A DNA stretch of 64,000 bases from an uncultured delta proteobacterium (lineage in GTDB: Bacteria; Desulfobacterota; Syntrophorhabdia; Syntrophorhabdales; WCHB1-27). This document shows positions 4,222-32,955 of this stretch, in pieces (within the stretch, counting starts at the first letter, position 1; every line of letters begins with the position of its first letter). A program made the position numbers and the translations under genes. The notes under the pieces were generated by a model. It was not told where the DNA came from and ran no database searches. It saw nothing but the letters and a program-made list of their open reading frames with translations. The stretch spans positions 265,106 to 329,105 of the forward strand of contig CAVQYC010000005.1 of assembly GCA_963717985.1 (NCBI GenBank). Reading direction: 5' to 3'.

Positions 4222-4441
4222 CGGTATATCCCTCCTTGCCATGATCCCTCCGTTCCCATTTGTTGCCATAGGAATGGCAGGATCAGATTCGGTTTGTCTA
4301 CCGACATCCGGCAAAAGTGGGGAATTATCTTGGCCCTACCAAGTGGGGAATAACCTTGGCCCTAAGAGCCTTCTAGTGGGGATATACCATAGTCCTCGAC
4401 AGGCCGGATACCCACTTCACAGGCAAGCGACGCGGTGATGT

Positions 4442-4840
4442 TCATGACTTCTCCTCGCTGGACCCCTTGAGCAGTTCGGCCACTTTTTTTTGGACATCGA
4501 TAATCAGCTCCGCCTGTTTGAGCTTATGCGCGAGTTTTTCATTTTCCTTTTCCAGTTCGGTAATACGGCGCACGTGGGGATCCGCCTTTTGCGCAGCAGG
4601 TCCTCTCTTCTTAGGAACGAGGCCTTGGGCAACCTGACGCCGCCACGAGGTGAGGCTCGACGAGTAGAGACCTTCCCTGCGCAGAAGGGCTCCGATCTGG
4701 CCGGGCTCGGTACAGCTCTCCGCCTCTTTGAGGATACGGAGCTTATACGCCGCAGTGAATTTCCTGCGTACCGTCTTCTCCGGCACCTCCGGATCAGGGA
4801 CTACCTTCGGGTGTGCCATCACTGAATTCTTCTCTTCCAT
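4442..4840 (-). CDS. IS3-family transposase OrfA (HTH / leucine zipper)
   Basis: FTAAYKLRILKEAE HTH region and a coiled-coil C-terminus (ELEKENEKLAHKLKQAELIIDVQKK). The stop overlaps a -1 frame ATG (ATGA at 4445-4442). Start chosen at MEEKNS; the ORF track begins at 4897. Confidence 0.8.
   Translation of the reverse strand: MEEKNSVMAHPKVVPDPEVPEKTVRRKFTAAYKLRILKEAESCTEPGQIGALLRREGLYSSSLTSWRRQVAQGLVPKKRGPAAQKADPHVRRITELEKENEKLAHKLKQAELIIDVQKKVAELLKGSSEEKS
4484..4491 (-). promoter_or_regulatory. Candidate programmed -1 ribosomal frameshift site (A-run) of IS3 element 1
   Basis: The run of eight T on the plus strand reads CAA AAA AAA G in the orfA frame. I translated the -1 frame and it stays open from this run through the orfA stop up to the IS21 insertion point at 4390. 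Confidence 0.55.
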
Positions 4841-4981
4841 GATCGTTCTTTCCTTCCCGCCCTCAGAGTCTAAACTATTGGGTGGGAAGTGTCTCACTTA
4901 TATTGGCACAGAGGGGTATGTCAAGGAAAGAATGGGACCCACACTTTCAGGAAGCTATTATGCATAGAAGGAAGCCACACA

Positions 4982-5486
4982 TAATTATCCTCTGGGTATA
5001 CCCCCGGCTCTGCCGGGGGACTCGAAAAGTTTGACATTTTCGGGAATATAAAAGAAAACCTCCTCCAATGTGAACCGCTCGAAGTTACACAAGGAGGAGG
5101 CCTTAGTGAATAACTTTCAGAGTTTAAATCACACCAGGTGGGATTGCAAGTTCCATGTGGTGTGGATACCGAAGTACAGGAAGAGGGCACTCTACGGGCA
5201 GCTCAGGAAACAGTTAGCGCCGGTGCTCAAGGAGCTGGCGAATCAGAAGGAAAGCGAAGTATTGGAAGGGCGTCTCGTAGAGGATCACGTACACATGCTC
5301 ATATCAATACCGCCCAAGTATGCCGTCGCCCAAGTTATAGGCTACATCAAGGGGAAGAGCGCCATATGGATCGCCCGTACGTGCGGAAGGAGAAAAAACT
5401 TCATCGGCCAGAATTTTTGGGCCAGGGGCTACTATGTGACAACGGCAGGGTTGGATGAAGAAACGGTCCGCGACTACATCAGAAAG
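4982..5486 (+). mobile_element. IS200/IS605-family element, copy 2, truncated at the 3' end
   Basis: Matches copy 1 from TAATTATCC (4982, equivalent to 1246), including the hairpin at 5001-5019. Homology ends after CATCAGAAAG at 5486. The right-end hairpin is missing. Confidence 0.8.
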
Positions 5487-5534: not shown

Positions 5535-7365
5535 GAAGAAAGTGCCCTTTCTGAAAGGATCAATCGTCACCATCGTTGTGTTACCACCATCGTGAAGATG
5601 AACTTCTTAGGCAAGGACACGCTGACTATTTGGGCCAAGAATACCTTCATGCTAATACAAAGAGACGATATGCAGCCTTCCAGGGTCTTTTTCAAGGCCC
5701 AAGGGGCCTTGGCCCACCTCTTTATGTTGCAGGCGATCAGTTTGCATGCAACGGCAAAGCATACTTTTGCCAGCCGGCGCACCCGAAGTCTGCCGATTCC
5801 GTGCGCTCGTTTCAGTTCGGAGTTCGTTGCTTCGATCCCTGCACGAATCTTGTACCGGTCCTTCCATTCAGTGGTCTGCTGGATGGCATACATCTGATCC
5901 CGCAGGCGAAGCTCGGCAGTGATCTCCAGACGAAAGTCCCCGACCGTTTCACGGGCCTGGCAGCCTTTGTTGCGGTGGTTCGGAGCTCTTACCGGGCACC
6001 TATCGAGCATCGTGCACGATCGACAGGCGTTTCCGTCAAAGATCGCATGGAGAGAACGACGGGTGCTGTTGTTGCCGCTCAGTATGCGATGGTCTATGGG
6101 ACTATTACCCATGGGACATCGGGTCACCAAACCTTCCGAGTCGAAGGAGAAAAGGTCTCTGCCCACGATATCGTCGGAGAGCCTGCTGCGGTTGACGGGC
6201 GTGACGAATTCGATACCTTGCTCTATGACCTTTGCCGCTGAAGGGACAGACGGATAACCGCCGTCGGCAAAGAGCGCTTCGGGCTTCAACCCGGCAGCCT
6301 CCAAACGTTCGATAACAGGAAGGGCCTTGCCGATGTCGGATCTGGCGGCGCCATGCACCTCATAGTCTGTGATGATTTCGGTTTTTCCGGTATTCTTGCA
6401 CGTCTCCGTAACATGAAGGCTGTATCCCGGCCCTTTATGTCCGCAGGACGCATCCGGGTCGTAAGGGGATTGAAGGGTTGCTCCTTCACTCTTTTTCTTC
6501 ACCTGGACCTTGGACGATTCTTGGTCTGAGGTGAATTCGCATTGTTCGGAGAAAAGGCGCTTCAACAATTGGTACGGCTCATTGCCTGTAAGTTCATTAT
6601 CCTTCTCGAAGATAACAATAAGGTCATAGAGATACTGCGCCAGTTCTTCCAGCTTGATCTTCTGCTCGGCCGGACCCAATCCGAACCAACCCTCGGGTTC
6701 GCTTGAATGCCATTCCTGAATTGCCTTCGGGACTCTCGACAATTGATCTTCATTCAGACTCTTGAGAAACTGGGTGAGCGTATTCGAGAATAGAGCCAAT
6801 CTGCCTCGTACACGAATGTTCGAGATTATGTGGGTAGAATCAAGCCGCTGGCTGGAAGACGAGAGGCCAAGTTTGCTTATCGCTGAATCTCTGATATTGT
6901 CGAATACATGGCGGACCAGCTTCATCTCCGGGTCTTTGGCGGCCAATCGCCTGCGGAACTCTACAAGAGAGCGACGGGACAAATAATCTTCCTCATCGCT
7001 GACATCCAAGGCGTATCGCCACCGGGTGTCAAAGCTGAAGGTGTCGAGGGCCTCCTGGTCACTCAAGTTGCTCCACTCCTGAAGGAGACACAAACCCAAA
7101 AGACGCGCAACGCTGAAATTAGGCCGGCCTGTTGTGCCGTACAGAATCGCATAGCGATCTTCGTTCCTGAACAGGATTGGAAATACCTCGCCTCTAAACA
7201 GGTGAGCCCATGAAGACTCAAGACGGTTCCGCAAAGAGGGGGACACCTGCGTCTCCACGCCGAGTAGTTTTTGTTGAGGTGGTGTTTTCTTATACATGAC
7301 ATATTCTATCATTGTATGTAATTAAATACAATAGTTATTTGTGGAGAGTTACTTCTCAGGAATCA
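5525..7365 (-). mobile_element. IS1182/IS5-superfamily-like element, copy A
   Basis: Terminal inverted repeats TGATTCCTGAGAAG (5525-) and CTTCTCAGGAATCA (-7365). AATG is present on both flanks. Confidence 0.7.
5567..7312 (-). CDS. DDE transposase, IS1182/IS5-superfamily-like (copy A)
   Basis: 581-aa ORF. The N-terminal region (FSVARLLGLCLLQEW, DQEALD) resembles the DUF772-type transposase N-terminal domain. FADGGY is present, and so is the C-terminal motif RAGIEATNSELKRAHGIGRLRVRR, typical of IS5/IS1182 DDE transposases. Confidence 0.75.
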   Translation of the reverse strand: MIEYVMYKKTPPQQKLLGVETQVSPSLRNRLESSWAHLFRGEVFPILFRNEDRYAILYGTTGRPNFSVARLLGLCLLQEWSNLSDQEALDTFSFDTRWRYALDVSDEEDYLSRRSLVEFRRRLAAKDPEMKLVRHVFDNIRDSAISKLGLSSSSQRLDSTHIISNIRVRGRLALFSNTLTQFLKSLNEDQLSRVPKAIQEWHSSEPEGWFGLGPAEQKIKLEELAQYLYDLIVIFEKDNELTGNEPYQLLKRLFSEQCEFTSDQESSKVQVKKKSEGATLQSPYDPDASCGHKGPGYSLHVTETCKNTGKTEIITDYEVHGAARSDIGKALPVIERLEAAGLKPEALFADGGYPSVPSAAKVIEQGIEFVTPVNRSRLSDDIVGRDLFSFDSEGLVTRCPMGNSPIDHRILSGNNSTRRSLHAIFDGNACRSCTMLDRCPVRAPNHRNKGCQARETVGDFRLEITAELRLRDQMYAIQQTTEWKDRYKIRAGIEATNSELKRAHGIGRLRVRRLAKVCFAVACKLIACNIKRWAKAPWALKKTLEGCISSLCISMKVFLAQIVSVSLPKKFIFTMVVTQRW

Positions 7366-7369
7366 AATG

Positions 7370-9215
7370 TGATTCCTGAGAAGTAAGTGCCCTTTCTGAA
7401 AGGAATCAACGCCACCCATCATTGTGCCACCACCATCGTGAAGGTGAACTTCTTAGGCAAGGACACGCTGACTATTTCGGCCAAGAATACCTTCACGCGA
7501 ACACAAAGAGACGATATGCAGCCTTCCAGGGTCCTTTTTAAGGCCCAATGGGCCTTGGCCCACCTCTTTATGTTGCAGGCGATCAGCTTGCATGCCACGG
7601 CGAAGTATACTTTTGCCAGCCGGCGCACCCGAAGTCTGCCGATTCCGTGCGCTCGTTTCAATTCGGAGTTTGTTGCTTCGATCCCTGCGCGGATCTTATA
7701 CCGGTCCTTCCATTCAGTTGTTTGCTGGACGGCGTACATCCGATCCCTCAGGCGAAGCTCGGGGGTGATCTCCAGACGAAAATCCCCGACCGTGTCACGG
7801 GCATTGCAGCCTTTCAGACGATGGTTGGGAGCCCGCACCGGACATCGATCGAGCATCGTGCACGATCGACAGAGGTTTCCGTCAAAGATCGCATGGAGAG
7901 AACGGCGGGTGCTGTTGTTGCCGCTCAGTACGCGATGGTCTTTGGGACTATGGCCCATGGGACATGTAGTTACCAAACCTTCCGGGTCGAAGGAGAAAAG
8001 GTCTCTGCCCACGATATCGTCGGAGAGCCTGCTCCGGTTTACCGGAGTAATGAATTCGATGCCTTGCTCTATGACCTTCGACGCTGAAGGAACAGATGGA
8101 TAACCGCCGTCGGCAAAAAGTGTTTGAGGCTTACACCCGGCAGCGTCAAGCCGTTCGATGACCGGAAGGGCTTTGCCGATGTCGGACCTGGCAGCGCCGT
8201 GCACCTCATAGTCGGTGATGATTTCGGTTTTTCCGGTATTCTTGCACGTCTCCGTAATATGAAGGCTGTATCCCGGTCCTTTATGTCCGCAGGACGCATC
8301 CGGATCGTAGGGGGATTGAAGGGCGGCTCCTTCGCTCTTTTTCTTCACCTGAACCTTGGACGAATCCGAGGAGTTGTCCTGTACGAATTCGCATTGTTCC
8401 GAGAAAAGGCGGTTAAGCAATTGATATGGCTCATTGCCTGTAAGTCCATCATCTTTCTCAAAGATAACGATAAGGTCGTAAAGATACTGAGCCAGTTCTT
8501 GCAGCTTGACGGTTTGCTCAGCCGGACCCAATCCGAACCAGCCTTCGGAGTCACGTGAATGCCACTCCAGAATTGCCTTCGGGACTGTCGACAATTGATC
8601 TTCATTCAGACTCTTGAGAAACTGGGTAAGCGTGTTTGAGAAGAGCGCCAACCTGCCTCGTACACGAATATTTGAGATGATATGGGTAGAATCAAGCCGC
8701 TGGCTGGAGGACGAGAGGCCAAGTTTGCTTATCGCTGAATCTCTGATATTGTCGAATATACCGCGAACCAGCTTCATCTCAGGGTCTTTGGCCGCCAACC
8801 GCCTGCGGAACTCTACAAGAGAGCGACGGGAAAGATAGTCTTCTTCATCGCTGACATCCAACGCATAGCGCCACCGGATGTCAAAGCTGAATTCGTCCAG
8901 GGCCTCCTGATCGCTCAAGTCGTTCCACTCCTGCAGGAGACACAGGCCCAAAAGACGCGCAACGCTGAAATTGGGACGGCCTGTTGTGCCGTACAGCATC
9001 GCATAGCGATCTTCGTTTCTGAACAAGACTGGAAATACCTCGCCTCTAAACAGGTGAGCCCAAGAAGACTCAAGACGGTTCCGCAAAGAGGGAGACACCT
9101 GCGTCTCCACGCCGAGTAGCTTTTGTTGAGGTGGTGTTCTCTTATACATGACATATTCTATCATTGTATGTAATTAAATACAATAGTTTTTTCGGGAGTT
9201 ACTTCTCAGGGATCA
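7370..9215 (-). mobile_element. IS1182/IS5-superfamily-like element, copy B, abutting copy A
   Basis: IRs TGATTCCTGAGAAG (7370-) and CTTCTCAGGGATCA (-9215). Flanked by AATG at 7366-7369 (shared with copy A) and at 9216-9219. Confidence 0.7.
7419..9164 (-). CDS. DDE transposase, IS1182/IS5-superfamily-like (copy B)
   Basis: 581-aa paralogue of 5567-7312. By eye it is roughly nine-tenths identical, with scattered substitutions and a small indel near residue 270. Confidence 0.75.
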   Translation of the reverse strand: MIEYVMYKRTPPQQKLLGVETQVSPSLRNRLESSWAHLFRGEVFPVLFRNEDRYAMLYGTTGRPNFSVARLLGLCLLQEWNDLSDQEALDEFSFDIRWRYALDVSDEEDYLSRRSLVEFRRRLAAKDPEMKLVRGIFDNIRDSAISKLGLSSSSQRLDSTHIISNIRVRGRLALFSNTLTQFLKSLNEDQLSTVPKAILEWHSRDSEGWFGLGPAEQTVKLQELAQYLYDLIVIFEKDDGLTGNEPYQLLNRLFSEQCEFVQDNSSDSSKVQVKKKSEGAALQSPYDPDASCGHKGPGYSLHITETCKNTGKTEIITDYEVHGAARSDIGKALPVIERLDAAGCKPQTLFADGGYPSVPSASKVIEQGIEFITPVNRSRLSDDIVGRDLFSFDPEGLVTTCPMGHSPKDHRVLSGNNSTRRSLHAIFDGNLCRSCTMLDRCPVRAPNHRLKGCNARDTVGDFRLEITPELRLRDRMYAVQQTTEWKDRYKIRAGIEATNSELKRAHGIGRLRVRRLAKVYFAVACKLIACNIKRWAKAHWALKRTLEGCISSLCVRVKVFLAEIVSVSLPKKFTFTMVVAQ

Positions 9216-9282: not shown

Positions 9283-9684
9283 TTACGGAGCTATCAGGTT
9301 GAGAGTGGGAAAATAGTTTCTGTACCGTTTACCGTCCCTGGTGAGAAGAGGCATGCCTTGCACTGCAGCGTGAGCCCCGATAAAGAAGTCAGGGAGGGGC
9401 GTAACTTTTCTGCCGCCTTTCTTTCTGTACTTGAGAAAGACTTTCCCAGCGAGAAAAGCGGCTTCCCAAGGGAGTGGGTCTTTCCGGAAGAACAGGGGAT
9501 CAAGGACTTCCTCCAGATCCTCGATAGAGGCAAAGCGTATTGATATCTCTGCATAGATAATGGGATTGATGACGAGGGTGTTCTTGTCTGCTTCAAAAGC
9601 CAGCTTCTCGGAGGACCAGGCGAACCACGCGGCATCGTTCGTAAGGACATCGAGAATAACGTTACTGTCGACAAGGACTTCCAA
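9283..9684 (-). CDS. vapC: PIN-domain toxin VapC
   Basis: 133 aa. N-terminal VLVDSNVILD and C-terminal LLTRD match the PIN acidic-residue pattern. It lies immediately downstream of an AbrB-type antitoxin gene with a 1-nt gap. Confidence 0.85.
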   Translation of the reverse strand: MEVLVDSNVILDVLTNDAAWFAWSSEKLAFEADKNTLVINPIIYAEISIRFASIEDLEEVLDPLFFRKDPLPWEAAFLAGKVFLKYRKKGGRKVTPLPDFFIGAHAAVQGMPLLTRDGKRYRNYFPTLNLIAP

Positions 9685-10947: not shown

Positions 10948-12659
10948 TTATTACCACTATTTGCTTGACAGGTAGGATAATAGTATTTAGTATAGTGGTG
11001 ATATGTTCTTCAGAACCAAGAAGTCGGGACCCCGGGAGTATCTCCAGATCGTCCGCAATCGAAGGGATGAAGGAAAGGTGAAACAGGAGGTCATCGGAAC
11101 CATCGGCCGGACCGATCTCCTTAAAGAAAGCGGTGCCATTGACAGCCTCCTCCGTTCGGGCGCCCGGTTCTCTGAAAGACTCGCCCTTCTGGATGCCTAT
11201 GAGAAGGGGGAGGCATCTCCGGCGAAAGATACGAAGATAGGCATACTGCTTATCTTCGGTCGTCTCTGGAACGAACTCGGCATACGGGAAGTTCTCGATG
11301 ATCTTCTTGCCCGCCGCCAGTTCCAGTTTCCCCTCGAAAGAGCCCTTTTTCTTACAGTGCTCCACCGTCTCACAGAAACCGGTTCCGACCGCTCCTGCGA
11401 CGAATGGCAGAAGGACTACCGGATAGAAGGGACAGAAGATATCGCTCTTCACCATCTCTACCGGGCGATGGCATGGCTCGGTGAACCTCTTCCGGATCAA
11501 ACAGACGCTACGCCCTTCTCGCCCCGCTGTGTGAAGGACATCGTGGAGGAGAAGCTCTTCGAGAAAAGAAAGGATCTCTTTGCCGACCTCACCCTTGCCT
11601 TCTTCGATACGACGAGCATCTACTTCGAGGGCGAGGGGGATTACTTGGGGGAGTATGGTAACTCGAAGGACAGCCGGCCTGATCTGTTGCAGATGGTGGT
11701 CGGCGTCGTCTTGGACCGATCAGGCACTCCCCTCTGCTCCGAGATGTGGCCCGGCAACACGGCCGACGTAAAGACCCTTCTCCCCGTCGTCACACGACTG
11801 CAAAAGCGCTTCGGCATAGGCAGGATATGCATAGTCGCCGACAGGGGGATGATAAGCAGGGAAACAATCGCCGAACTCGAAAGAAACCACATCGACTATA
11901 TCCTGGGCGTCAGGATGAGAAGCCAAAAGGAGATAGGAACAGATGTTCTCTCCAGAGCCGGACGCTATCATGAGGTGGAAGAGAACCTGAAGGTAAAGGA
12001 AGTCCTGCACGGAGGCAAGCGTTATATCGTCTGCGTCAATGAAGACCAGGCGAAGAAAGATGCTCATGATAGGCAGGCCATAGTCGCGGCGCTCGAAGAG
12101 CGCCTGACGAAGGGGACGAAAGGCCTCATCGGGAATAAAGGCTATAGGAAGTACGTCAGGATGGAGAGGAATGCAGTGACGATCGACAACGACAAGATTG
12201 CCGATGAGGCGCGCTACGACGGCAAGTGGGTGCTCGCCACGAACACGTCCCTTAAACCGGAGCACGTGGCAAGACAGTACAAAAACCTCTGGATGGTGGA
12301 GCAGGCGTTCAGGACGATGAAATCCGTGCTCAACACACGGCCCATCTTCCACAAGAGGACCGAGACGATAAGAGGTCATGTCTTTTGCAGCTTCCTGGCG
12401 CTTATCCTCATGAAAGAGCTCAAGACCAGGCTTGCGAAGAAAGGCTGGAAGCTCGAATGGGACAGGCTGATCCGTGATCTCGATCATCTCAAGGAAATAG
12501 AAGTGTCGGCTGTCGGGAAAAACGTGATCATCAGAACGGAACTCAGGGGTGACACGGGCAAGGTGTTCCAGGCAGCGGGCGTCGCCGTCCCCTCTACAGT
12601 GAAACTGATAAACAGGACAGAGTCAGATGAGGCATGATCCCGTAACCCCAACCTCTTTT
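10948..12659 (+). mobile_element. IS1634-like (IS4 superfamily) element; boundaries inferred from an 11-bp flanking direct repeat
   Basis: GTAGTGCCACG occurs at 10937-10947 and again at 12660-12670, bracketing the transposase gene. I could not recognise convincing terminal inverted repeats. Confidence 0.5.
11003..12637 (+). CDS. IS1634-family (IS4 superfamily) DDE transposase
   Basis: 544 aa. The N-terminus FRTKKSGPREYLQIVRNRRDEGKVKQEVIGTIGR is characteristic of IS1634-type transposases. Also present: DTTSIYFEG, VADRGM and a C-terminal YKNLWMVEQAFRTMKS block. Confidence 0.8.
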   Translation: MFFRTKKSGPREYLQIVRNRRDEGKVKQEVIGTIGRTDLLKESGAIDSLLRSGARFSERLALLDAYEKGEASPAKDTKIGILLIFGRLWNELGIREVLDDLLARRQFQFPLERALFLTVLHRLTETGSDRSCDEWQKDYRIEGTEDIALHHLYRAMAWLGEPLPDQTDATPFSPRCVKDIVEEKLFEKRKDLFADLTLAFFDTTSIYFEGEGDYLGEYGNSKDSRPDLLQMVVGVVLDRSGTPLCSEMWPGNTADVKTLLPVVTRLQKRFGIGRICIVADRGMISRETIAELERNHIDYILGVRMRSQKEIGTDVLSRAGRYHEVEENLKVKEVLHGGKRYIVCVNEDQAKKDAHDRQAIVAALEERLTKGTKGLIGNKGYRKYVRMERNAVTIDNDKIADEARYDGKWVLATNTSLKPEHVARQYKNLWMVEQAFRTMKSVLNTRPIFHKRTETIRGHVFCSFLALILMKELKTRLAKKGWKLEWDRLIRDLDHLKEIEVSAVGKNVIIRTELRGDTGKVFQAAGVAVPSTVKLINRTESDEA

Positions 12660-16174: not shown

Positions 16175-16181
16175 AGGACGC

Positions 16182-16389
16182 GTACCTTTTCTGCCGCCTT
16201 TCTTTCTGTACTTGAGAAAGACTTTTCCAGCGAGAAAGGCGGCTTCCCAGGGGAGTGGGTCTTTCCGGAAGAACAGGGGATCGAGGACTTCCTCCAGATC
16301 CTCGATAGAGGCAAAGCGTATCGATATCTCTGCATAGATAAGGGGATTGATGACGAGAGTGTTCTTGTCTGCTTCAAAAGCCGGCTTCT
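16182..16389 (-). pseudogene. vapC: Internal fragment of a second vapC gene
   Basis: 208 bp align base-for-base with vapC positions 9401-9608, with only about ten mismatches by eye. No start codon, no N- or C-terminal portion and no antitoxin partner are present. Confidence 0.8.
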
Positions 16390-16419
16390 AGGTCCATTGC
16401 CTGGGTGTGGTTTCAGCCG

Positions 16420-18695: not shown

Positions 18696-18859
18696 AGCTT
18701 TTCGCCTGGTGCTGATTATGAGTAAACGGGCATTGGGGCCGGCAAATTATACCAGAACAATTTTATGATATAAAGATCGGTTCTTCTTCCCGATTAGCGG
18801 ACTGAAATGTTGCGCCACGGCTCCGGGAAGCCCATCGTCCTTTTTTCCGAGGATGCTTT

Positions 18860-18924
18860 TTGTCACCCTTGGTTGTCATCTCTGGTTGTCGCTCCTGGTT
18901 GTCACTCCTCCTTGTCGCTTTGAC
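18860..18924. repeat. Five tandem 13-bp repeats (TTGTCAC-type), the inverted counterpart of 31458-31522
   Basis: TTGTC(A/G) recurs at 18860, 18873, 18886, 18899 and 18912, an exact 13-bp period. The reverse complement aligns with the GTGACAA array at 31458-31522. Confidence 0.85.
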
Positions 18925-19088
18925 AGGAGAGCGGAAAACTGAGAAAATCTTATCAGCACCCTTCCCTCCCTGCCGGTCGGGTGGTGCGACGTGAGCAAGT
19001 GGCGACCCGGCCGCATCCGGGTGGGGTATGATGGATTTAGTGGACACCAAAGTTGAGGTACAATACAGAAGCAGACGGAGGTGTCACT

Positions 19089-19409
19089 ATGGCGAAGGAG
19101 AAGATCCCCTATGGCGTCTATTCGAGAGAGTTCCGGGAGGAGGCGGTCAAGCTGGTCATAGAAAACGGCTTCAGCGTCAGGCAGGTGGGCGTTCAGCTAT
19201 CAATCCCTTCTACCACCATAAGGTACTGGGTAAAGGCCCACAAGAAGGGTGAACTCGCATCAGTGGGGAAGACGAAGAAGACCCTCTCGGAAACAGAGCT
19301 GGAACTGGCACGGGTGAGAAGAGAACTGGCCGAAGTGAAGATGGAACGTGATCTACTAAAAAAGGCAGCCGCGTACTTTGCGAAAGGGTCGCTGCCCGGT
19401 ACGCGCTGA
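19089..19409 (+). CDS. IS3-family transposase OrfA
   Basis: HTH (FSVRQVGVQLSIPSTTIRYWV) plus a leucine-zipper-like tail. The ATG at 19089 follows GGAGG. The ORF track begins at 19053. Confidence 0.85.
   Translation: MAKEKIPYGVYSREFREEAVKLVIENGFSVRQVGVQLSIPSTTIRYWVKAHKKGELASVGKTKKTLSETELELARVRRELAEVKMERDLLKKAAAYFAKGSLPGTR
19358..19364 (+). promoter_or_regulatory. Programmed -1 frameshift heptamer A_AAA_AAG (OrfAB fusion)
   Basis: CTA AAA AAG is in the orfA frame. The -1 frame read from here runs in frame into orfB (...ALMKQMRLTY). This is the canonical IS3/IS911/IS150-type motif. Confidence 0.75.
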
Positions 19410-20269
19410 TGAAGCAGATGCGACTCACGTACTCCATCCCCCGGATGTGCCGTTTCTTCAGGGTATCGGCAAGCGGATACTATAAATGGCTCAATGCTCC
19501 TCCTTCAAGACATGCCAGGGAGGAAGCACGGCTGGAAATAGAGATCCGGGTTGCCCACAAAAGGACCCGTGAGACCTCAGGGCCTGAGAAGCTTCAGGCA
19601 GACCTTGCGGAACATGGGATAAGGGTGGGCATCTGCAGGATCAGACGGATCAGGGAGAAACTGGGGATACGGTGCAAACAAATCAGGAAGTTCAAGGCAA
19701 CAACGCACTCGAAACATACGCTTCCCGTGGCGGAGAACCTCCTGGAACAGAACTTCAGGGTAGAAGCTCCAAACGAGGTCTGGGTCAGTGACCTGACCTA
19801 TGTGCCCACCGAAGAAGGCTGGCTCTACTGCGCCGCTCACAAAGACCTCTTCAACGGGGAGATCGTCGGCTACGCCCTGGGATCGAGGATCATCACGGAC
19901 CTAGTGAAGGAGTCCCTCTCCCGGGCAGTAGGGTCCAGGCGCCCGGCCAGGGGACTCATTCATCACTCTGATCGCGGTTGTCAGTACTGCTCCCACGAAT
20001 ACCGGAAGCTGCTCGAACGGTTCGGCATGAAGGCATCAATGAGCAGAAAGGGCAACTGCTACGACAACGCCCCTATGGAGAGCTTTTGGGGCACCTTGAA
20101 GAACGAGCTTGTCCACCACCGGCATTACAGAACAAGAGAGGAGGCACGCAGAGACATTACCGAATACATTGAAGTCTTCTACAACCGGCAGCGGCGTCAG
20201 AGACGGCTTGGCTATCTATCTCCCGTGGCATATGGGAGGCAGTTCCACGCCAGACAGGTTGCGGCATGA
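19409..20269 (+). CDS. IS3-family transposase OrfB (DDE integrase core)
   Basis: DDE motifs WVSDLTY, HHSDRGCQY and CYDNAPMESFW. It overlaps the orfA stop. Confidence 0.9.
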   Translation: MKQMRLTYSIPRMCRFFRVSASGYYKWLNAPPSRHAREEARLEIEIRVAHKRTRETSGPEKLQADLAEHGIRVGICRIRRIREKLGIRCKQIRKFKATTHSKHTLPVAENLLEQNFRVEAPNEVWVSDLTYVPTEEGWLYCAAHKDLFNGEIVGYALGSRIITDLVKESLSRAVGSRRPARGLIHHSDRGCQYCSHEYRKLLERFGMKASMSRKGNCYDNAPMESFWGTLKNELVHHRHYRTREEARRDITEYIEVFYNRQRRQRRLGYLSPVAYGRQFHARQVAA

Positions 20270-20318
20270 AAGATATTTCGTGTCCACTATTGACATCAGG
20301 GGTCAGACGGCGGTGCCC

Positions 20319-20516
20319 CACCCCCCCCTAAACCGTCCAGTTTCGTCCACTTTCGTCCACCCCCCTTCTGGAAGGCTTGCGGGAGAAGAGAATGAGAAGA
20401 GGGGTTGCGAGACGGCCTGTGAAAAATGCGTGCCGAAGAGGGCAAAGAAAGAGTAAAAGGCGGTAAAACATGCCAAAACTAAGCGTTTTTGCGTTTGTTT
20501 GTTCACAACGTTGCGC
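20319..20516. repeat. ~0.2-kb repeat block with three tandem 10-bp units, the inverted counterpart of 31113-31268
   Basis: CGTCCAGTTT, CGTCCACTTT and CGTCCACCCC at 20334-20363, followed by CCTTCTGGAAGGCTTGCGGGAGAAG. The reverse complement aligns, with indels, to 31113-31268. Confidence 0.8.
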
Positions 20517-31013: not shown

Positions 31014-31112
31014 CTCATTCTCACAGAGAAATTATAGCCTGGTGTTTGACAAGTTGTCAAGAATAAAGGACGGCCCTAATCGTTCCGGCCGGGTGCCGTC
31101 ATGGACAAATAT

Positions 31113-31268
31113 GCGCAACAAACAGTCTTCTTTTGGCATTGTTTGCCCTTTTTTGCACGCATTTGTCACCAACCGTTTTGCAACCCCTTCCGGATCCCCT
31201 TCTCCCGCAAGCCTTCCAGAAGGGGGGTTTACGAAAGTGGACGAAAGTGGACGGTTTCAGGGGGGGTG
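31113..31268. repeat. ~0.16-kb repeat block with tandem 10-bp GTGGACGAAA units, the counterpart of 20319-20516
   Basis: TTTACGAAAG, TGGACGAAAG and TGGACGGTTT at 31228-31257, preceded by CTTCTCCCGCAAGCCTTCCAGAAGG. It aligns to the reverse complement of 20319-20516. Confidence 0.8.
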
Positions 31269-31457
31269 CATGCCCATTCGACGGAAGATGGGCGACGGGA
31301 GAGGGGAGCAACACTGCTATCCGAAGGGCTGTCGCGGCTCAGTTGTCAAAGAACACGGCCGGGCACGTGATCTATATACGCGGCCTTGGGCTCACACGCT
31401 GACGAAGTGCGGGCGCCTATGCGATATAGTATCTCTCAATCCCTTCTTCCCGTCAAA

Positions 31458-31522
31458 GTGACAAGGAGGGGTGACAATCAGAGACGACAAGGAGAGGTGA
31501 CAACCAGGGGTGACAATAGGCA
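31458..31522. repeat. Five tandem 13-bp repeats (GTGACAA-type)
   Basis: (G/A)(T/C)GACAA starts at 31458, 31471, 31484, 31497 and 31510, an exact 13-bp period. The array ends 3 bp before the IS3 copy 2 terminus. Confidence 0.85.
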
Positions 31523-31561
31523 TGTTGACCCCTGATGTCAATAGTGGACACGAAATATCTT

Positions 31562-32422
31562 TCATGCCGCAACCTGTCTGGCGTGGAACTGCCTCCCATA
31601 TGCCACGGGAGATAGATAGCCAAGCCGTCTCTGACGCCGCTGCCGGTTGTAGAAGACTTCAATGTATTCGGTAATGTCTCTGCGTGCCTCCTCTCTTGTT
31701 CTGTAATGCCGGTGGTGGACAAGCTCGTTCTTCAAGGTGCCCCAAAAGCTCTCCATAGGGGCGTTGTCGTAGCAGTTGCCCTTTCTGCTCATTGATGCCT
31801 TCATGCCGAACCGTTCGAGCAGCTTCCGGTATTCGTGGGAGCAGTACTGACAACCGCGATCAGAGTGATGAATGAGTCCCCTGGCCGGGCGCCTGGACCC
31901 TACTGCCCGGGAGAGGGACTCCTTGACTAGGTCCGTGATGATCCTCGATCCCAGGGCGTAGCCGACGATCTCCCCGTTGAAGAGGTCTTTGTGAGCGGCG
32001 CAGTAGAGCCAGCCTTCTTCGGTGGGCACATAGGTCAGGTCACTGACCCAGACCTCGTTTGGAGCTTCTACCCTGAAGTTCTGTTCCAGGAGGTTCTCCG
32101 CCACGGGAAGCGTATGTTTCGAGTGCGTTGTTGCCTTGAACTTCCTGATTTGTTTGCACCGTATCCCCAGTTTCTCCCTGATCCGTCTGATCCTGCAGAT
32201 GCCCACCCTTATCCCATGTTCCGCAAGGTCTGCCTGAAGCTTCTCAGGCCCTGAGGTCTCACGGGTCCTTTTGTGGGCGACCCGGATCTCTATTTCCAGC
32301 CGTGCTTCCTCCCTGGCATGTCTTGAAGGAGGAGCATTGAGCCATTTATAGTATCCGCTTGCCGATACCCTGAAGAAACGGCACATCCGGGGGATGGAGT
32401 ACGTGAGTCGCATCTGCTTCAT
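31562..32422 (-). CDS. IS3-family transposase OrfB (copy 2)
   Basis: Protein identical to 19409-20269. Confidence 0.9.
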   Translation of the reverse strand: MKQMRLTYSIPRMCRFFRVSASGYYKWLNAPPSRHAREEARLEIEIRVAHKRTRETSGPEKLQADLAEHGIRVGICRIRRIREKLGIRCKQIRKFKATTHSKHTLPVAENLLEQNFRVEAPNEVWVSDLTYVPTEEGWLYCAAHKDLFNGEIVGYALGSRIITDLVKESLSRAVGSRRPARGLIHHSDRGCQYCSHEYRKLLERFGMKASMSRKGNCYDNAPMESFWGTLKNELVHHRHYRTREEARRDITEYIEVFYNRQRRQRRLGYLSPVAYGRQFHARQVAA

Positions 32423-32742
32423 CAGCGCGTACCGGGCAGCGACCCTTTCGCAAAGTACGCGGCTGCCTTTTTTAGTAGATCACGTTCCATCTTCACTTCG
32501 GCCAGTTCTCTTCTCACCCGTGCCAGTTCCAGCTCTGTTTCCGAGAGGGTCTTCTTCGTCTTCCCCACTGATGCGAGTTCACCCTTCTTGTGGGCCTTTA
32601 CCCAGTACCTTATGGTGGTAGAAGGGATTGATAGCTGAACGCCCACCTGCCTGACGCTGAAGCCGTTTTCTATGACCAGCTTGACCGCCTCCTCCCGGAA
32701 CTCTCTCGAATAGACGCCATAGGGGATCTTCTCCTTCGCCAT
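32422..32742 (-). CDS. IS3-family transposase OrfA (copy 2)
   Basis: Protein identical to 19089-19409. Confidence 0.85.
   Translation of the reverse strand: MAKEKIPYGVYSREFREEAVKLVIENGFSVRQVGVQLSIPSTTIRYWVKAHKKGELASVGKTKKTLSETELELARVRRELAEVKMERDLLKKAAAYFAKGSLPGTR
32467..32473 (-). promoter_or_regulatory. Programmed -1 frameshift heptamer A_AAA_AAG (copy 2)
   Basis: CTTTTTT on the plus strand is the mirror of 19358-19364. Confidence 0.7.
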
Positions 32743-32955
32743 AGTGACACCTCCGTCTGCTTCTGTATTGTACCTCAACTTTGGTGTCCACTAAATCCAT
32801 CATACTCTATGTTTGAGATTTTTTGATCGGCCTGTTGTCATATTACCGGCTGGCAGCGAGACGCCGGAGAATATCAGTATTGACGCGAAAGAAGCATAAC
32901 GCCGAAGGCATGGCGAGGGTAGCGAGACTCATCATGGTAAACCATGTTCTGTTAC

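Follow-up and report, generated by a model that had tools for sequence, protein, structure and literature searches.

Certain insertion sequences (IS) of the IS3 family are known to insert into dispersed intergenic repeats: IS1397 and ISKpn1 insert into the palindromic units found within bacterial interspersed mosaic elements (BIMEs), and ISPsy8 inserts into the repetitive extragenic palindromes (REPs) of Pseudomonas (PMC1525189). In this paper we describe a locus for which these three elements provide the closest precedent. The locus lies in a stretch of 64,000 nucleotides from an uncultured delta proteobacterium (contig CAVQYC010000005.1), which was analysed as a whole; we refer to this stretch as the window, and coordinates, unless another locus is named, are positions within it. 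The window contains two copies of an intergenic repeat, which we call the unit, each consisting of two blocks of short tandem repeats (A and B) and each accompanied by an IS3-family element. As in the case of IS1397, ISKpn1 and ISPsy8, a preference for a dispersed intergenic repeat seems to be kept across related copies of the IS (PMC1525189). The target here, however, is a polar composite of 0.4-0.7 kb that carries a predicted promoter cassette, rather than a REP hairpin of 20-40 bp, and the insertions are spread over ~30 bp beside a set of 10-bp repeats, or lie at the edge of the unit, rather than in a hairpin loop.

The unit may also be compared with the mosaic intergenic repeats, such as the BIMEs of enterobacteria and the BOX elements of Streptococcus pneumoniae. 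In Geobacter bemidjiensis, multicopy intergenic sequences are likewise modular, with tandem sub-repeats and rapid exchange between copies (PMC2996986). The unit is like all of these in that the number of modules varies, sub-repeats are present, several families may occupy one intergenic region, and exchange is fast. To our knowledge, none of these repeats is built on a complete consensus promoter with a heptad array, and we know of none that is held in common with phage packaging operons.

Protein-binding repeats next to packaging genes are familiar from phages: RinA-dependent staphylococcal late promoters lie directly upstream of terS, and the cosB repeats of lambda lie upstream of Nu1. In the phage-type loci described below, repeats that are putatively protein-binding also stand immediately before the first packaging gene; but here they are direct heptads with a 13-bp period, fused to a sigma-70-type -35 element, and the same cassette is dispersed in host chromosomes, where it precedes non-coding sequence. 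A resemblance only is found with parC of plasmid R1, whose 11-bp repeats flank a promoter, and with tubC, which has 12-bp repeats, each bound cooperatively by a small protein. There, too, short direct repeats with a period of 11-13 bp abut a promoter, whereas the unit has no partition or replication genes nearby and occurs in many copies per chromosome. The locus varies on two known kinds of system, namely mosaic intergenic repeats and insertion sequences for which such repeats are the target; its unusual feature is the predicted, complete, array-bearing promoter cassette that it has in common with phages.

Results

A polar family of modular repeats

By its sequence, the unit belongs to a modular family of intergenic repeats that is widespread and has not been described before. 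The reading that we favour, and which we consider probable though well short of certain, is that this family is polar, modular and promoter-bearing, that its arrays are bound by a regulator, and that one IS3-family lineage preferentially integrates into its members; promoter activity, protein binding and target recognition by the IS are the predicted parts of this reading.

A scan of a public metagenome collection with the specific pattern TTGTCACN6TTGTCRCTTTGAC yielded at least 120 loci, and two IMG/VR contigs (L036 and L038) matched as well; these two viral contigs share a 13-mer, TTGTCACCCCTGG, and an ending, TTGTCACTTTGAC. All counts of metagenome loci given below are counts among the matches listed for this pattern. 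A looser pattern, four TTGTC motifs at 13-bp spacing, matched mostly unrelated 13-bp tandem repeats in viral contigs, and was therefore judged too unspecific. An earlier note on this stretch of DNA had named a genome-wide intergenic repeat as the third of the roles open to the unit, and the scan bears this out. The search for further units and adjoining IS copies in other genomes, which the same note had suggested, also succeeded, since related IS copies were found inside the units of four of the loci (L170, L188, L085 and L089).

The architecture common to all instances consists of a left edge, RTGCTTT, followed by two to six heptads with a 13-bp period, the last of which is fused to TTGACA; the edge recurs in most family members, and in some it is preceded by a terminator-like hairpin. 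The 6-nt spacers between heptads are CCCTGG and CCCTCC, often in alternation. The last heptad and the -35 together read TGTCA-N3-TGACA, and a -10 of the form nAnAAT lies 17 bp further on. Among 95 distinct family members, surveyed only at the positions that the search pattern leaves free, the commonest -10 at the 17-bp spacing is GAAAAT (38/95), followed by GAGAAT, CACAAT, TAAGCT and GATACT. Block B thus contains, in conserved form, the TTGACA, the 17-bp spacing and the -10 hexamer expected of a sigma-70 promoter. Because the -10 is conserved at positions that were free in the search pattern, we infer that block B is a sigma-70-type promoter cassette, with an upstream array of putative binding sites. 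The predicted promoter reads toward block A, so that the unit runs in the direction opposite to the A-to-B orientation first assigned to it.

Blocks A and B are coupled in order and in strand. In 57 of the 125 B instances, an A-like BLAST match lies 100-450 nt downstream of B in the same orientation. A non-redundant set of 53 cassettes was also scanned with a relaxed pattern for the 10-bp core (two phased YGT-NN-AC motifs). This core was found 46-459 nt downstream on the same strand in 26 of the 53, as compared with none of the 53 in each of the three control placements (the opposite strand downstream, and either strand upstream) and with a background rate of zero in the window. Thus, we conclude that the unit is a real polar entity. 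Its density is estimated at about one extra copy per 100-200 kb.

Each block occurs exactly twice in the window, the two copies being mutually inverted, as the earlier note had stated. Block A at 31113/31139-31268 matches the reverse complement of 20319-20449/20516 with ~85% identity and one indel, and contains a 30-nt core that is identical in both copies, where shuffled sequences give an expectation of zero matches. Block B at 31448-31523 matches the reverse complement of 18853-18928 with ~83% identity. The tandem arrays were also as described: Tandem Repeats Finder reports a period of 10 in block A, with 2.3 copies and 100% matches at 31231-31253 and 2.7 copies at 20334-20360. If a degenerate third copy is included, there are three 10-bp repeats. 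Both copies of block B contain five heptads with a period of exactly 13 bp, giving 8 paired matches as compared to 0.33 expected. The spacer between the blocks is not conserved: one copy has 179 bp, whereas the other has 110 bp in addition to the IS. No homology was found between the spacers of the two window copies, or with L013, a locus from another assembly (z of 2.1 or less).

The presence of only two copies of each block in the window might suggest a simpler account, in which a segmental inverted duplication carried the IS along with it. However, the two IS copies are 2 substitutions apart while identity between the unit blocks is no more than 83-85%, the position of the IS differs from one unit to the other, the spacers are unrelated, and the family is found at at least 120 other loci. 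We therefore regard a duplication confined to these two sites, which had been put forward as a possible refutation of the association between unit and IS, as refuted.

Insertion of an IS3-family lineage into units

The IS at each unit copy, as originally reported, belongs to the IS3 family. The mobile unit is 1284 bp long, with ends TGGGGTATGATGG... and ...CATCAGGGGTCA (TG...CA), and its two window copies are near-identical. An exact look-up of the OrfB protein in public assemblies returned 19 contigs, shown as ten places, and the boundaries of the IS were set by comparing the flanks of the further copies at these ten places. OrfB scores 339 bits against NF033516, for which the cut-off is 160; the Pfam families on record for the called IS genes are HTH_Tnp_1, HTH_21, rve and rve_3; and orfB overlaps orfA in the -1 frame, with a predicted frameshift at AAAAAAG. 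The element has imperfect terminal inverted repeats and makes 3-bp target duplications, namely GTT (L001), GGG (L004), AAC (L005), TGT (window copy 2) and CCC (L170/L198). IS copy 2 had been placed 3 bp after the 13-bp array; those 3 bp are the target duplication TGT. The IS boundaries were corrected accordingly to the coordinates in Table 1, and the insertion is exactly at the outer edge of the unit (ATGCCTA).

Both flanks of IS copy 1 abut within the family module CCGGCCGCATCCGACGGCGGTGC, and a large deletion at this copy is therefore not needed. We also rejected an inversion between the two inverted IS copies, given the matching TGT duplications of copy 2 and the lack of any contig in which the flank pairings are swapped.

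Related IS copies, 80-88% identical to those of the window, occur in five metagenome loci, and four of the five lie inside units. Since only a few per cent of the sampled metagenome DNA belongs to unit interiors, four insertions out of five in such interiors are unlikely by chance, with the proviso that the loci were preselected for units. Where both junctions can be placed, the insertions in units of other genomes sit 11-27 bp upstream of the 10-bp repeats. Furthermore, L198 provides an empty-site match for L170: at the insertion point, the two differ only by the IS and its CCC duplication. The related IS copies inside units, together with this empty site, support targeting of units by the IS, and by its sequence one IS3-family lineage has inserted into this repeat several separate times. 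The insertions do not all have the same polarity. Both window copies are met with the right inverted repeat (IRR) first when the unit is read from A to B, as had been claimed, but those of L170, L188 and L085 are oriented the other way with respect to the left inverted repeat (IRL) and IRR (Table 1).

Five left flanks and five right flanks are found for the IS in the source population, which therefore contains at least five copies; two of the five are at units. Contigs join these flanks in seven combinations, which reflect either assembly chimeras or real recombination between IS copies. One population copy (L004, 1-3986) lies in the leader between a CRISPR array and cas4-cas2-cas1. The CRISPR array, with at least 33 repeats of GTTTCAATCCTTGTTTTTCTGGAATGGCCTTTGGGAC and a period of ~74 nt, is unlike the unit arrays, and a unit-type box, GCTCTTTGACAACTTGAG, occurs 58 nt from the end of the IS.

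It is important to distinguish a preference for units from the particular mechanism by which it might arise. According to the earlier note, the cores of the repeats resemble the inverted repeats (IRs) of the IS, so that the IS would be drawn to units by mimicry, in the manner of IS911. IS911 is reported to target IR-like sequences (Loot et al. 2002; Rousseau et al. 2008), and the idea in both cases is that a transposase bound at an IR-like site captures the target. The motif AGTGGAC is indeed common to the IR core and the 10-bp repeat of the window (the IRR being TTTCGTGTCCAC and the family repeat TTTCGTGCAC), and the insertions are grouped on one side of the repeats, 11-27 nt away. The resemblance does not, however, exceed chance, in contrast to what is reported for IS911: when either IR is aligned locally to block A or block B, the best scores are no better than those against random window segments (p = 0.04-0.8). 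Moreover, most family members carry GTGCAC, GTCAAC or GTAAAC instead of GTCCAC, and yet related IS copies insert there, while window copy 2 lies at the far edge of B, away from A. We consider this mechanism doubtful, though conceivable. In another respect the IS does resemble IS911, which is also an IS3-family element that moves by the copy-out, paste-in route. With a TTGACA 10 nt from the tip of the IRR and a TATGAT 5 nt from that of the IRL, a promoter could form at the junction of the two ends, which is a known arrangement at IS3-family circle junctions.

Table 1. Coordinates of the two unit copies and their IS elements in the window, followed by the positions of IS insertions relative to units
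Feature	Coordinates	Strand	Details
Upstream module, unit copy 1	18805..18859	+	terminator-like hairpin 18836-18855; conserved left edge ATGCTTT
Block B array, copy 1	18860..18924	+	five TTGTCAC-type heptads, 13-bp period; last overlaps -35
Predicted promoter, copy 1	18920..18948	+	TTGACA, 17 bp, GAAAAT; TG upstream of -10
Left part of spacer, copy 1	18949..19021	+	CACCCTTCCCTCCCTGCCGGTCGGGTGG (18957-18984), first half of CCGGCCGCATCCGACGGCGGTGC
IS copy 1	19022..20305	+	orfA 19089-19409; A6G slippery site 19358-19364; orfB to 20269
Right part of spacer, copy 1, then block A	20306..20516	+	spacer part 20306-20320
Block A, copy 1	20321-20328; 20330-20361	+	poly-C tract; three phased 10-bp repeats
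Block A, copy 1, beyond repeats		+	CTTCTGGAAGGCTTGCGGGAGAAG box, then A-tract tail ending at TTGTTTGTTCAC
Block A, copy 2 (intact unit)	31113..31268	-	10-bp repeats 31231-31254
Poly-C tract of block A, copy 2	31260-31266	-	reads as G on + strand
Variable spacer, copy 2	31269..31427	-	holds family box CTCTTTGACAAYTGA as GTTCTTTGACAACTGAGC, 31337-31354
Predicted promoter, copy 2	31428..31456	-	TTGACG, 17 bp, GATACT
Block B array, copy 2	31458..31522	-	five heptads, 13-bp period
Target duplication TGT of IS copy 2	31523..31525	.	second at 32810-32812
IS copy 2	31526..32809	-	2 substitutions relative to copy 1; IRL tip TAGA, not TGGG
Insertion in window copy 1			27 nt before 10-bp repeats; IRL...IRR in B-to-A orientation
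Insertion in window copy 2			exactly at outer edge of B, upstream of B; IRL...IRR
Insertion in L170			14 nt before repeats; IRR...IRL in B-to-A orientation
Insertion in L089			26 nt before repeats; end adjoining A is IRL
Insertion in L188			about 10-13 nt before repeats, by homology with L152; IRR first
Insertion in L085			within spacer; IRR first

Mosaic structure of the unit, and DNA versus RNA

In its family form, block A consists of a poly-C tract of variable length, three TTTYGT-NN-AC repeats with a 10-bp period, a conserved box, and phased A-tracts spaced ~11 bp apart. Within the GT-NN-AC repeats the central NN varies freely while the flanking bases are fixed. The middle of the unit is a mosaic of hairpin modules that may be present or absent, small palindromes, an AT-rich module, and the CTCTTTGACAAYTGA box, which is invariant in 22 aligned family members. 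For example, the modules CACCCTTCCCTCCCTGCCGGTCGGGTGG and CCGGCCGCATCCGACGGCGGTGC both recur in L152, L165, L109, L172, L145 and L183, and L170 differs from L198 by one heptad and a 77-bp palindromic module, in addition to the IS. In near-identical loci (L092 versus L133; L152 versus L165) the poly-C tract before the 10-bp repeats differs in length, within a range of 6 to 12 nt, as slipped-strand variation would be expected to produce. The cassette also precedes a second conserved non-coding class, again with 10-bp repeats. The ~75 bp upstream of the copy 1 array also precede the array in L090; these ~75 bp are all that the two have in common, and L090 was therefore rejected as an orthologous locus.

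A promoter whose polarity is fixed toward a conserved block raises the question of whether the unit specifies a non-coding RNA, some 250-600 nt long, transcribed from the B promoter and having block A as its conserved 3' part (a sponge or scaffold). Such a gene would agree with the hairpin-forming modules in the 5' region, whose stems appear to change between classes, with the AU-rich hairpin and subsequent U-rich run at the end of block A, and with the lack of a plausible conserved open reading frame (ORF), the apparent peptide conservation of one class falling in different reading frames. But the structure search that the earlier note had proposed gave no support for an RNA. In the 5' region, where a 13-nt box is invariant, the RNAalifold consensus is unsupported, with 4 pairs of which none is compensatory, and in block A its covariation term is +0.2, with almost all pairs invariant and 3 pairs showing a single compensatory change. 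No Rfam family matches the unit, either in the window at the gathering threshold, in the unit at the E-value threshold, or in 31 metagenome loci, where the only Rfam matches are tRNAs, a c-di-GMP riboswitch variant and a group II intron, all outside units. Moreover, the best-conserved parts are short phased direct repeats with free central bases, which are typical of DNA sites. An RNA gene is thus, in our view, unlikely. Given the lack of both an Rfam match and covariation, the conserved blocks look like DNA-level arrays that a protein would bind or bend. What is conserved is the primary sequence of the direct repeats, and the unit is, as the earlier note had said, not coding.

The unit differs from other classes of repeat as well. 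Its conserved blocks are direct repeats, with periods of 13 and 10 bp, and not the palindromic units of REPs and BIMEs, and no gene resembling a REP-associated tyrosine transposase (RAYT) was seen in the annotated neighbourhood. With these periods, and with no unique spacers, it is not a CRISPR array. Alternatively, the unit could be a non-autonomous element akin to a MITE (a miniature transposable element with inverted repeats), in which B and A are the ends and their repeats bind a transposase or recombinase. The unit is dispersed and modular, with variable copy number; both of its ends have related direct repeats (TTGT-CAC and TYGTNNAC) in the same orientation; and a similar 10-bp array adjoins a tyrosine-integrase gene in a viral contig (L200). 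On the other hand, no terminal inverted repeats were seen between the RTGCTTT edge and the tail of block A, searches for target duplications and for a filled/empty pair of a whole unit found none, the units are not regularly accompanied by a transposase or recombinase, and the conserved promoter elements in B would be needless at a transposon end. We find this explanation highly doubtful. A MITE-like insertion does occur within the unit of both L095 and L181. The viral 10-bp arrays of the TTCGTNCACT type, which may or may not be related to block A, are located just after the tyrosine-integrase gene in L200 (2490-2560), between a late-regulator-like gene (read by eye) and an HNH gene in L201 (455-490), and in L078, which has an 8-copy array.

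The cassette in phages

In six loci (L036, L038, L080, L124, L140 and L164) an ATG located 6-7 nt after the -10 opens a small gene. In the viral contigs L036 and L038, this small gene overlaps the gene for the terminase large subunit (TerL), which is followed by the portal gene; the terminase is ~50% identical to those of cultured phages. The same small leaderless gene follows the cassette in several metagenome loci, and the promoter architecture of window copy 2, with GATACT, also precedes the leaderless ATG in L036. We predict, therefore, that in the two viral contigs and in several metagenome loci the cassette drives leaderless phage packaging operons. The small leaderless proteins have no informative family in Pfam or PHROGs, and no match to a terminase small subunit. 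L036 also encodes an 88-aa zinc-finger protein (11217-11483). No block A was found in the phage contigs. L038 contains two further sets of three heptads, with a 12-bp period and on the opposite strand, directly after its portal gene (5880-6010). These sets and the upstream cassette enclose the packaging genes in inverted orientation, much as 11 kb of the window is enclosed by the two units.

The position of the cassette beside packaging genes would fit a pac or cos site, and one may ask whether the heptad array is a phage signal, either a pac-type array for the terminase small subunit (TerS) or an array for a late activator, of which the chromosomal units are mimics. The cassette stands directly upstream of the first leaderless packaging gene in L036 and L038, whose TerL is homologous to those of phages; the additional heptad arrays of L038 point in the same direction; and a 13-bp period, being off the helical repeat of DNA, would suit wrapping around an oligomer. 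Yet the -35 and -10 remain conserved in chromosomal copies without phage genes nearby, the small first gene lacks a match to a small-subunit family, most cassettes precede block A, which was not found in the phage contigs, and the density of extra copies is high for pac mimics. This makes mimicry of a phage signal very unlikely.

A related proposal, which we think quite unlikely as well, is that the heptad cassette is the response element of a phage-encoded late activator or small terminase, and that the chromosomal units are phage-responsive. In that case the dozens of chromosomal units would be decoys for a phage protein, or switches across block A that are fired by infection, or starting points for the packaging of host DNA, and they would double as landing pads for the IS lineage.

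Weighing the favoured reading

We return to the reading of the unit as a member of a promoter-bearing repeat family targeted by an IS lineage. We propose that the heptads would be covered by a regulator that affects RNA polymerase at the -35, and that block A, downstream of the transcription start, would offer a second site for binding and bending on the same face. The cassette would then be a regulated promoter spread over many loci, which phages of the same hosts would employ for their leaderless packaging operons. An IS3-family lineage (copy-out, paste-in, with 3-bp duplications) would favour units, mostly 11-27 bp upstream of the block A repeats, and such a preference would account for both IS copies in the window.

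Several observations weigh against this reading. The units are co-directional with the next gene in 13 cases and opposed in 6, according to a crude ORF call, and a plain role as promoter of the downstream gene is therefore not general; for the same reason we rejected the unit as the 5' regulatory region of the next gene. No candidate regulator was found: in the phage-type loci, the genes upstream of the cassette differ between contigs and include no consistent regulator. With regard to the IS, the metagenome loci were chosen as carriers of the cassette, so that the association of IS and unit is inflated there; in the source population, three IS copies out of five are located elsewhere than in intact units; and window IS copy 1 has no clean duplication (GGG versus GAC). 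Finally, in L013 (1-103) the block A on the radC side is preceded, outward from the poly-C tract, by different modules and no IS, among them a hairpin, CCAGCTCCATATTGCCTCGGCTGGGTGGCA, that is also present inside other units. Some rearrangement is therefore possible.

The family appears to be new to the collections searched. There was no match for it in Rfam or in the annotated phage and plasmid collections, including BLAST searches of the full unit against plasmids and of the phage cassette against GenBank phages, nor was a match to the unit found in the supplementary tables of the G. bemidjiensis multicopy sequences. A 20-nt core of block A gave three chance matches only, with no similarity in the flanks, among species-representative genomes, from which the source species is therefore absent. 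What began as an oddity at two sites is now a defined family with a strict order, a polarity and a recognisable cassette, at at least 120 metagenome loci and in phage contigs. It thus becomes testable which protein reads direct heptads at a 13-bp period, off the helical repeat, why one cassette is common to phage packaging operons and non-coding chromosomal loci, and how an IS3-family transposase picks a composite repeat, which would extend the IS1397-BIME precedent to another kind of target. The family also has a practical consequence, in that short-read assemblies are broken by units and IS copies, and many contigs end exactly at an IS or at the edge of block A.

Neighbourhood and other observations

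The segment between the two IS copies is ordinary chromosome, with radC, nadK, recN, a GNAT acetyltransferase gene and pmbA, together with glycosyltransferase genes and the toxin-antitoxin pair phd-vapC. The gene downstream of block A is radC for one copy and phd for the other, and each of these genes has a promoter-like site of its own. The phd-vapC operon, in particular, has a perfect consensus promoter (TTGACA, 18 bp, TATAAT) at 31031-31060, which overlaps a palindrome, TTGACAACTTGTCAA, whose half-sites resemble the unit heptad. At 31513-31541 a -35 (TTGACA) in the IRR of IS copy 2 and a TATTGT at the edge of the unit make up a hybrid promoter-like site that reads into the heptad array.

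Among the metagenome loci, L136 (4564-4887) and L173 have a heptad cassette that converges on a tRNA-Arg(CCG) gene, with a 43-aa ORF that has a strong ribosome-binding site in between; this arrangement may be the edge of an integrated element. The cassette locus L134 contains a c-di-GMP-I-GGC riboswitch and a group II intron (2028-2126 and 2882-2981). From the distribution of this riboswitch variant, we take it as a weak hint of Geobacter-like hosts.

The window also contains a second, different IS3-family element (229-1231 and 4402-4915), which is contiguous in L002 but split here by ~3.2 kb. Direct repeats flank the intervening segment (1246-1545 and 4982-5281) and match each other along the 300 nt that were compared; the arrangement looks like a nested insertion. 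A 213-nt direct repeat with 95% identity is found at 9399-9611 and 16180-16392, in surroundings that are otherwise unrelated. Finally, two tandem paralogous ORFs of 581 aa each occupy 5567-7312 and 7419-9164, and the segments of them that were compared, upstream region included, are 87-93% identical in DNA.

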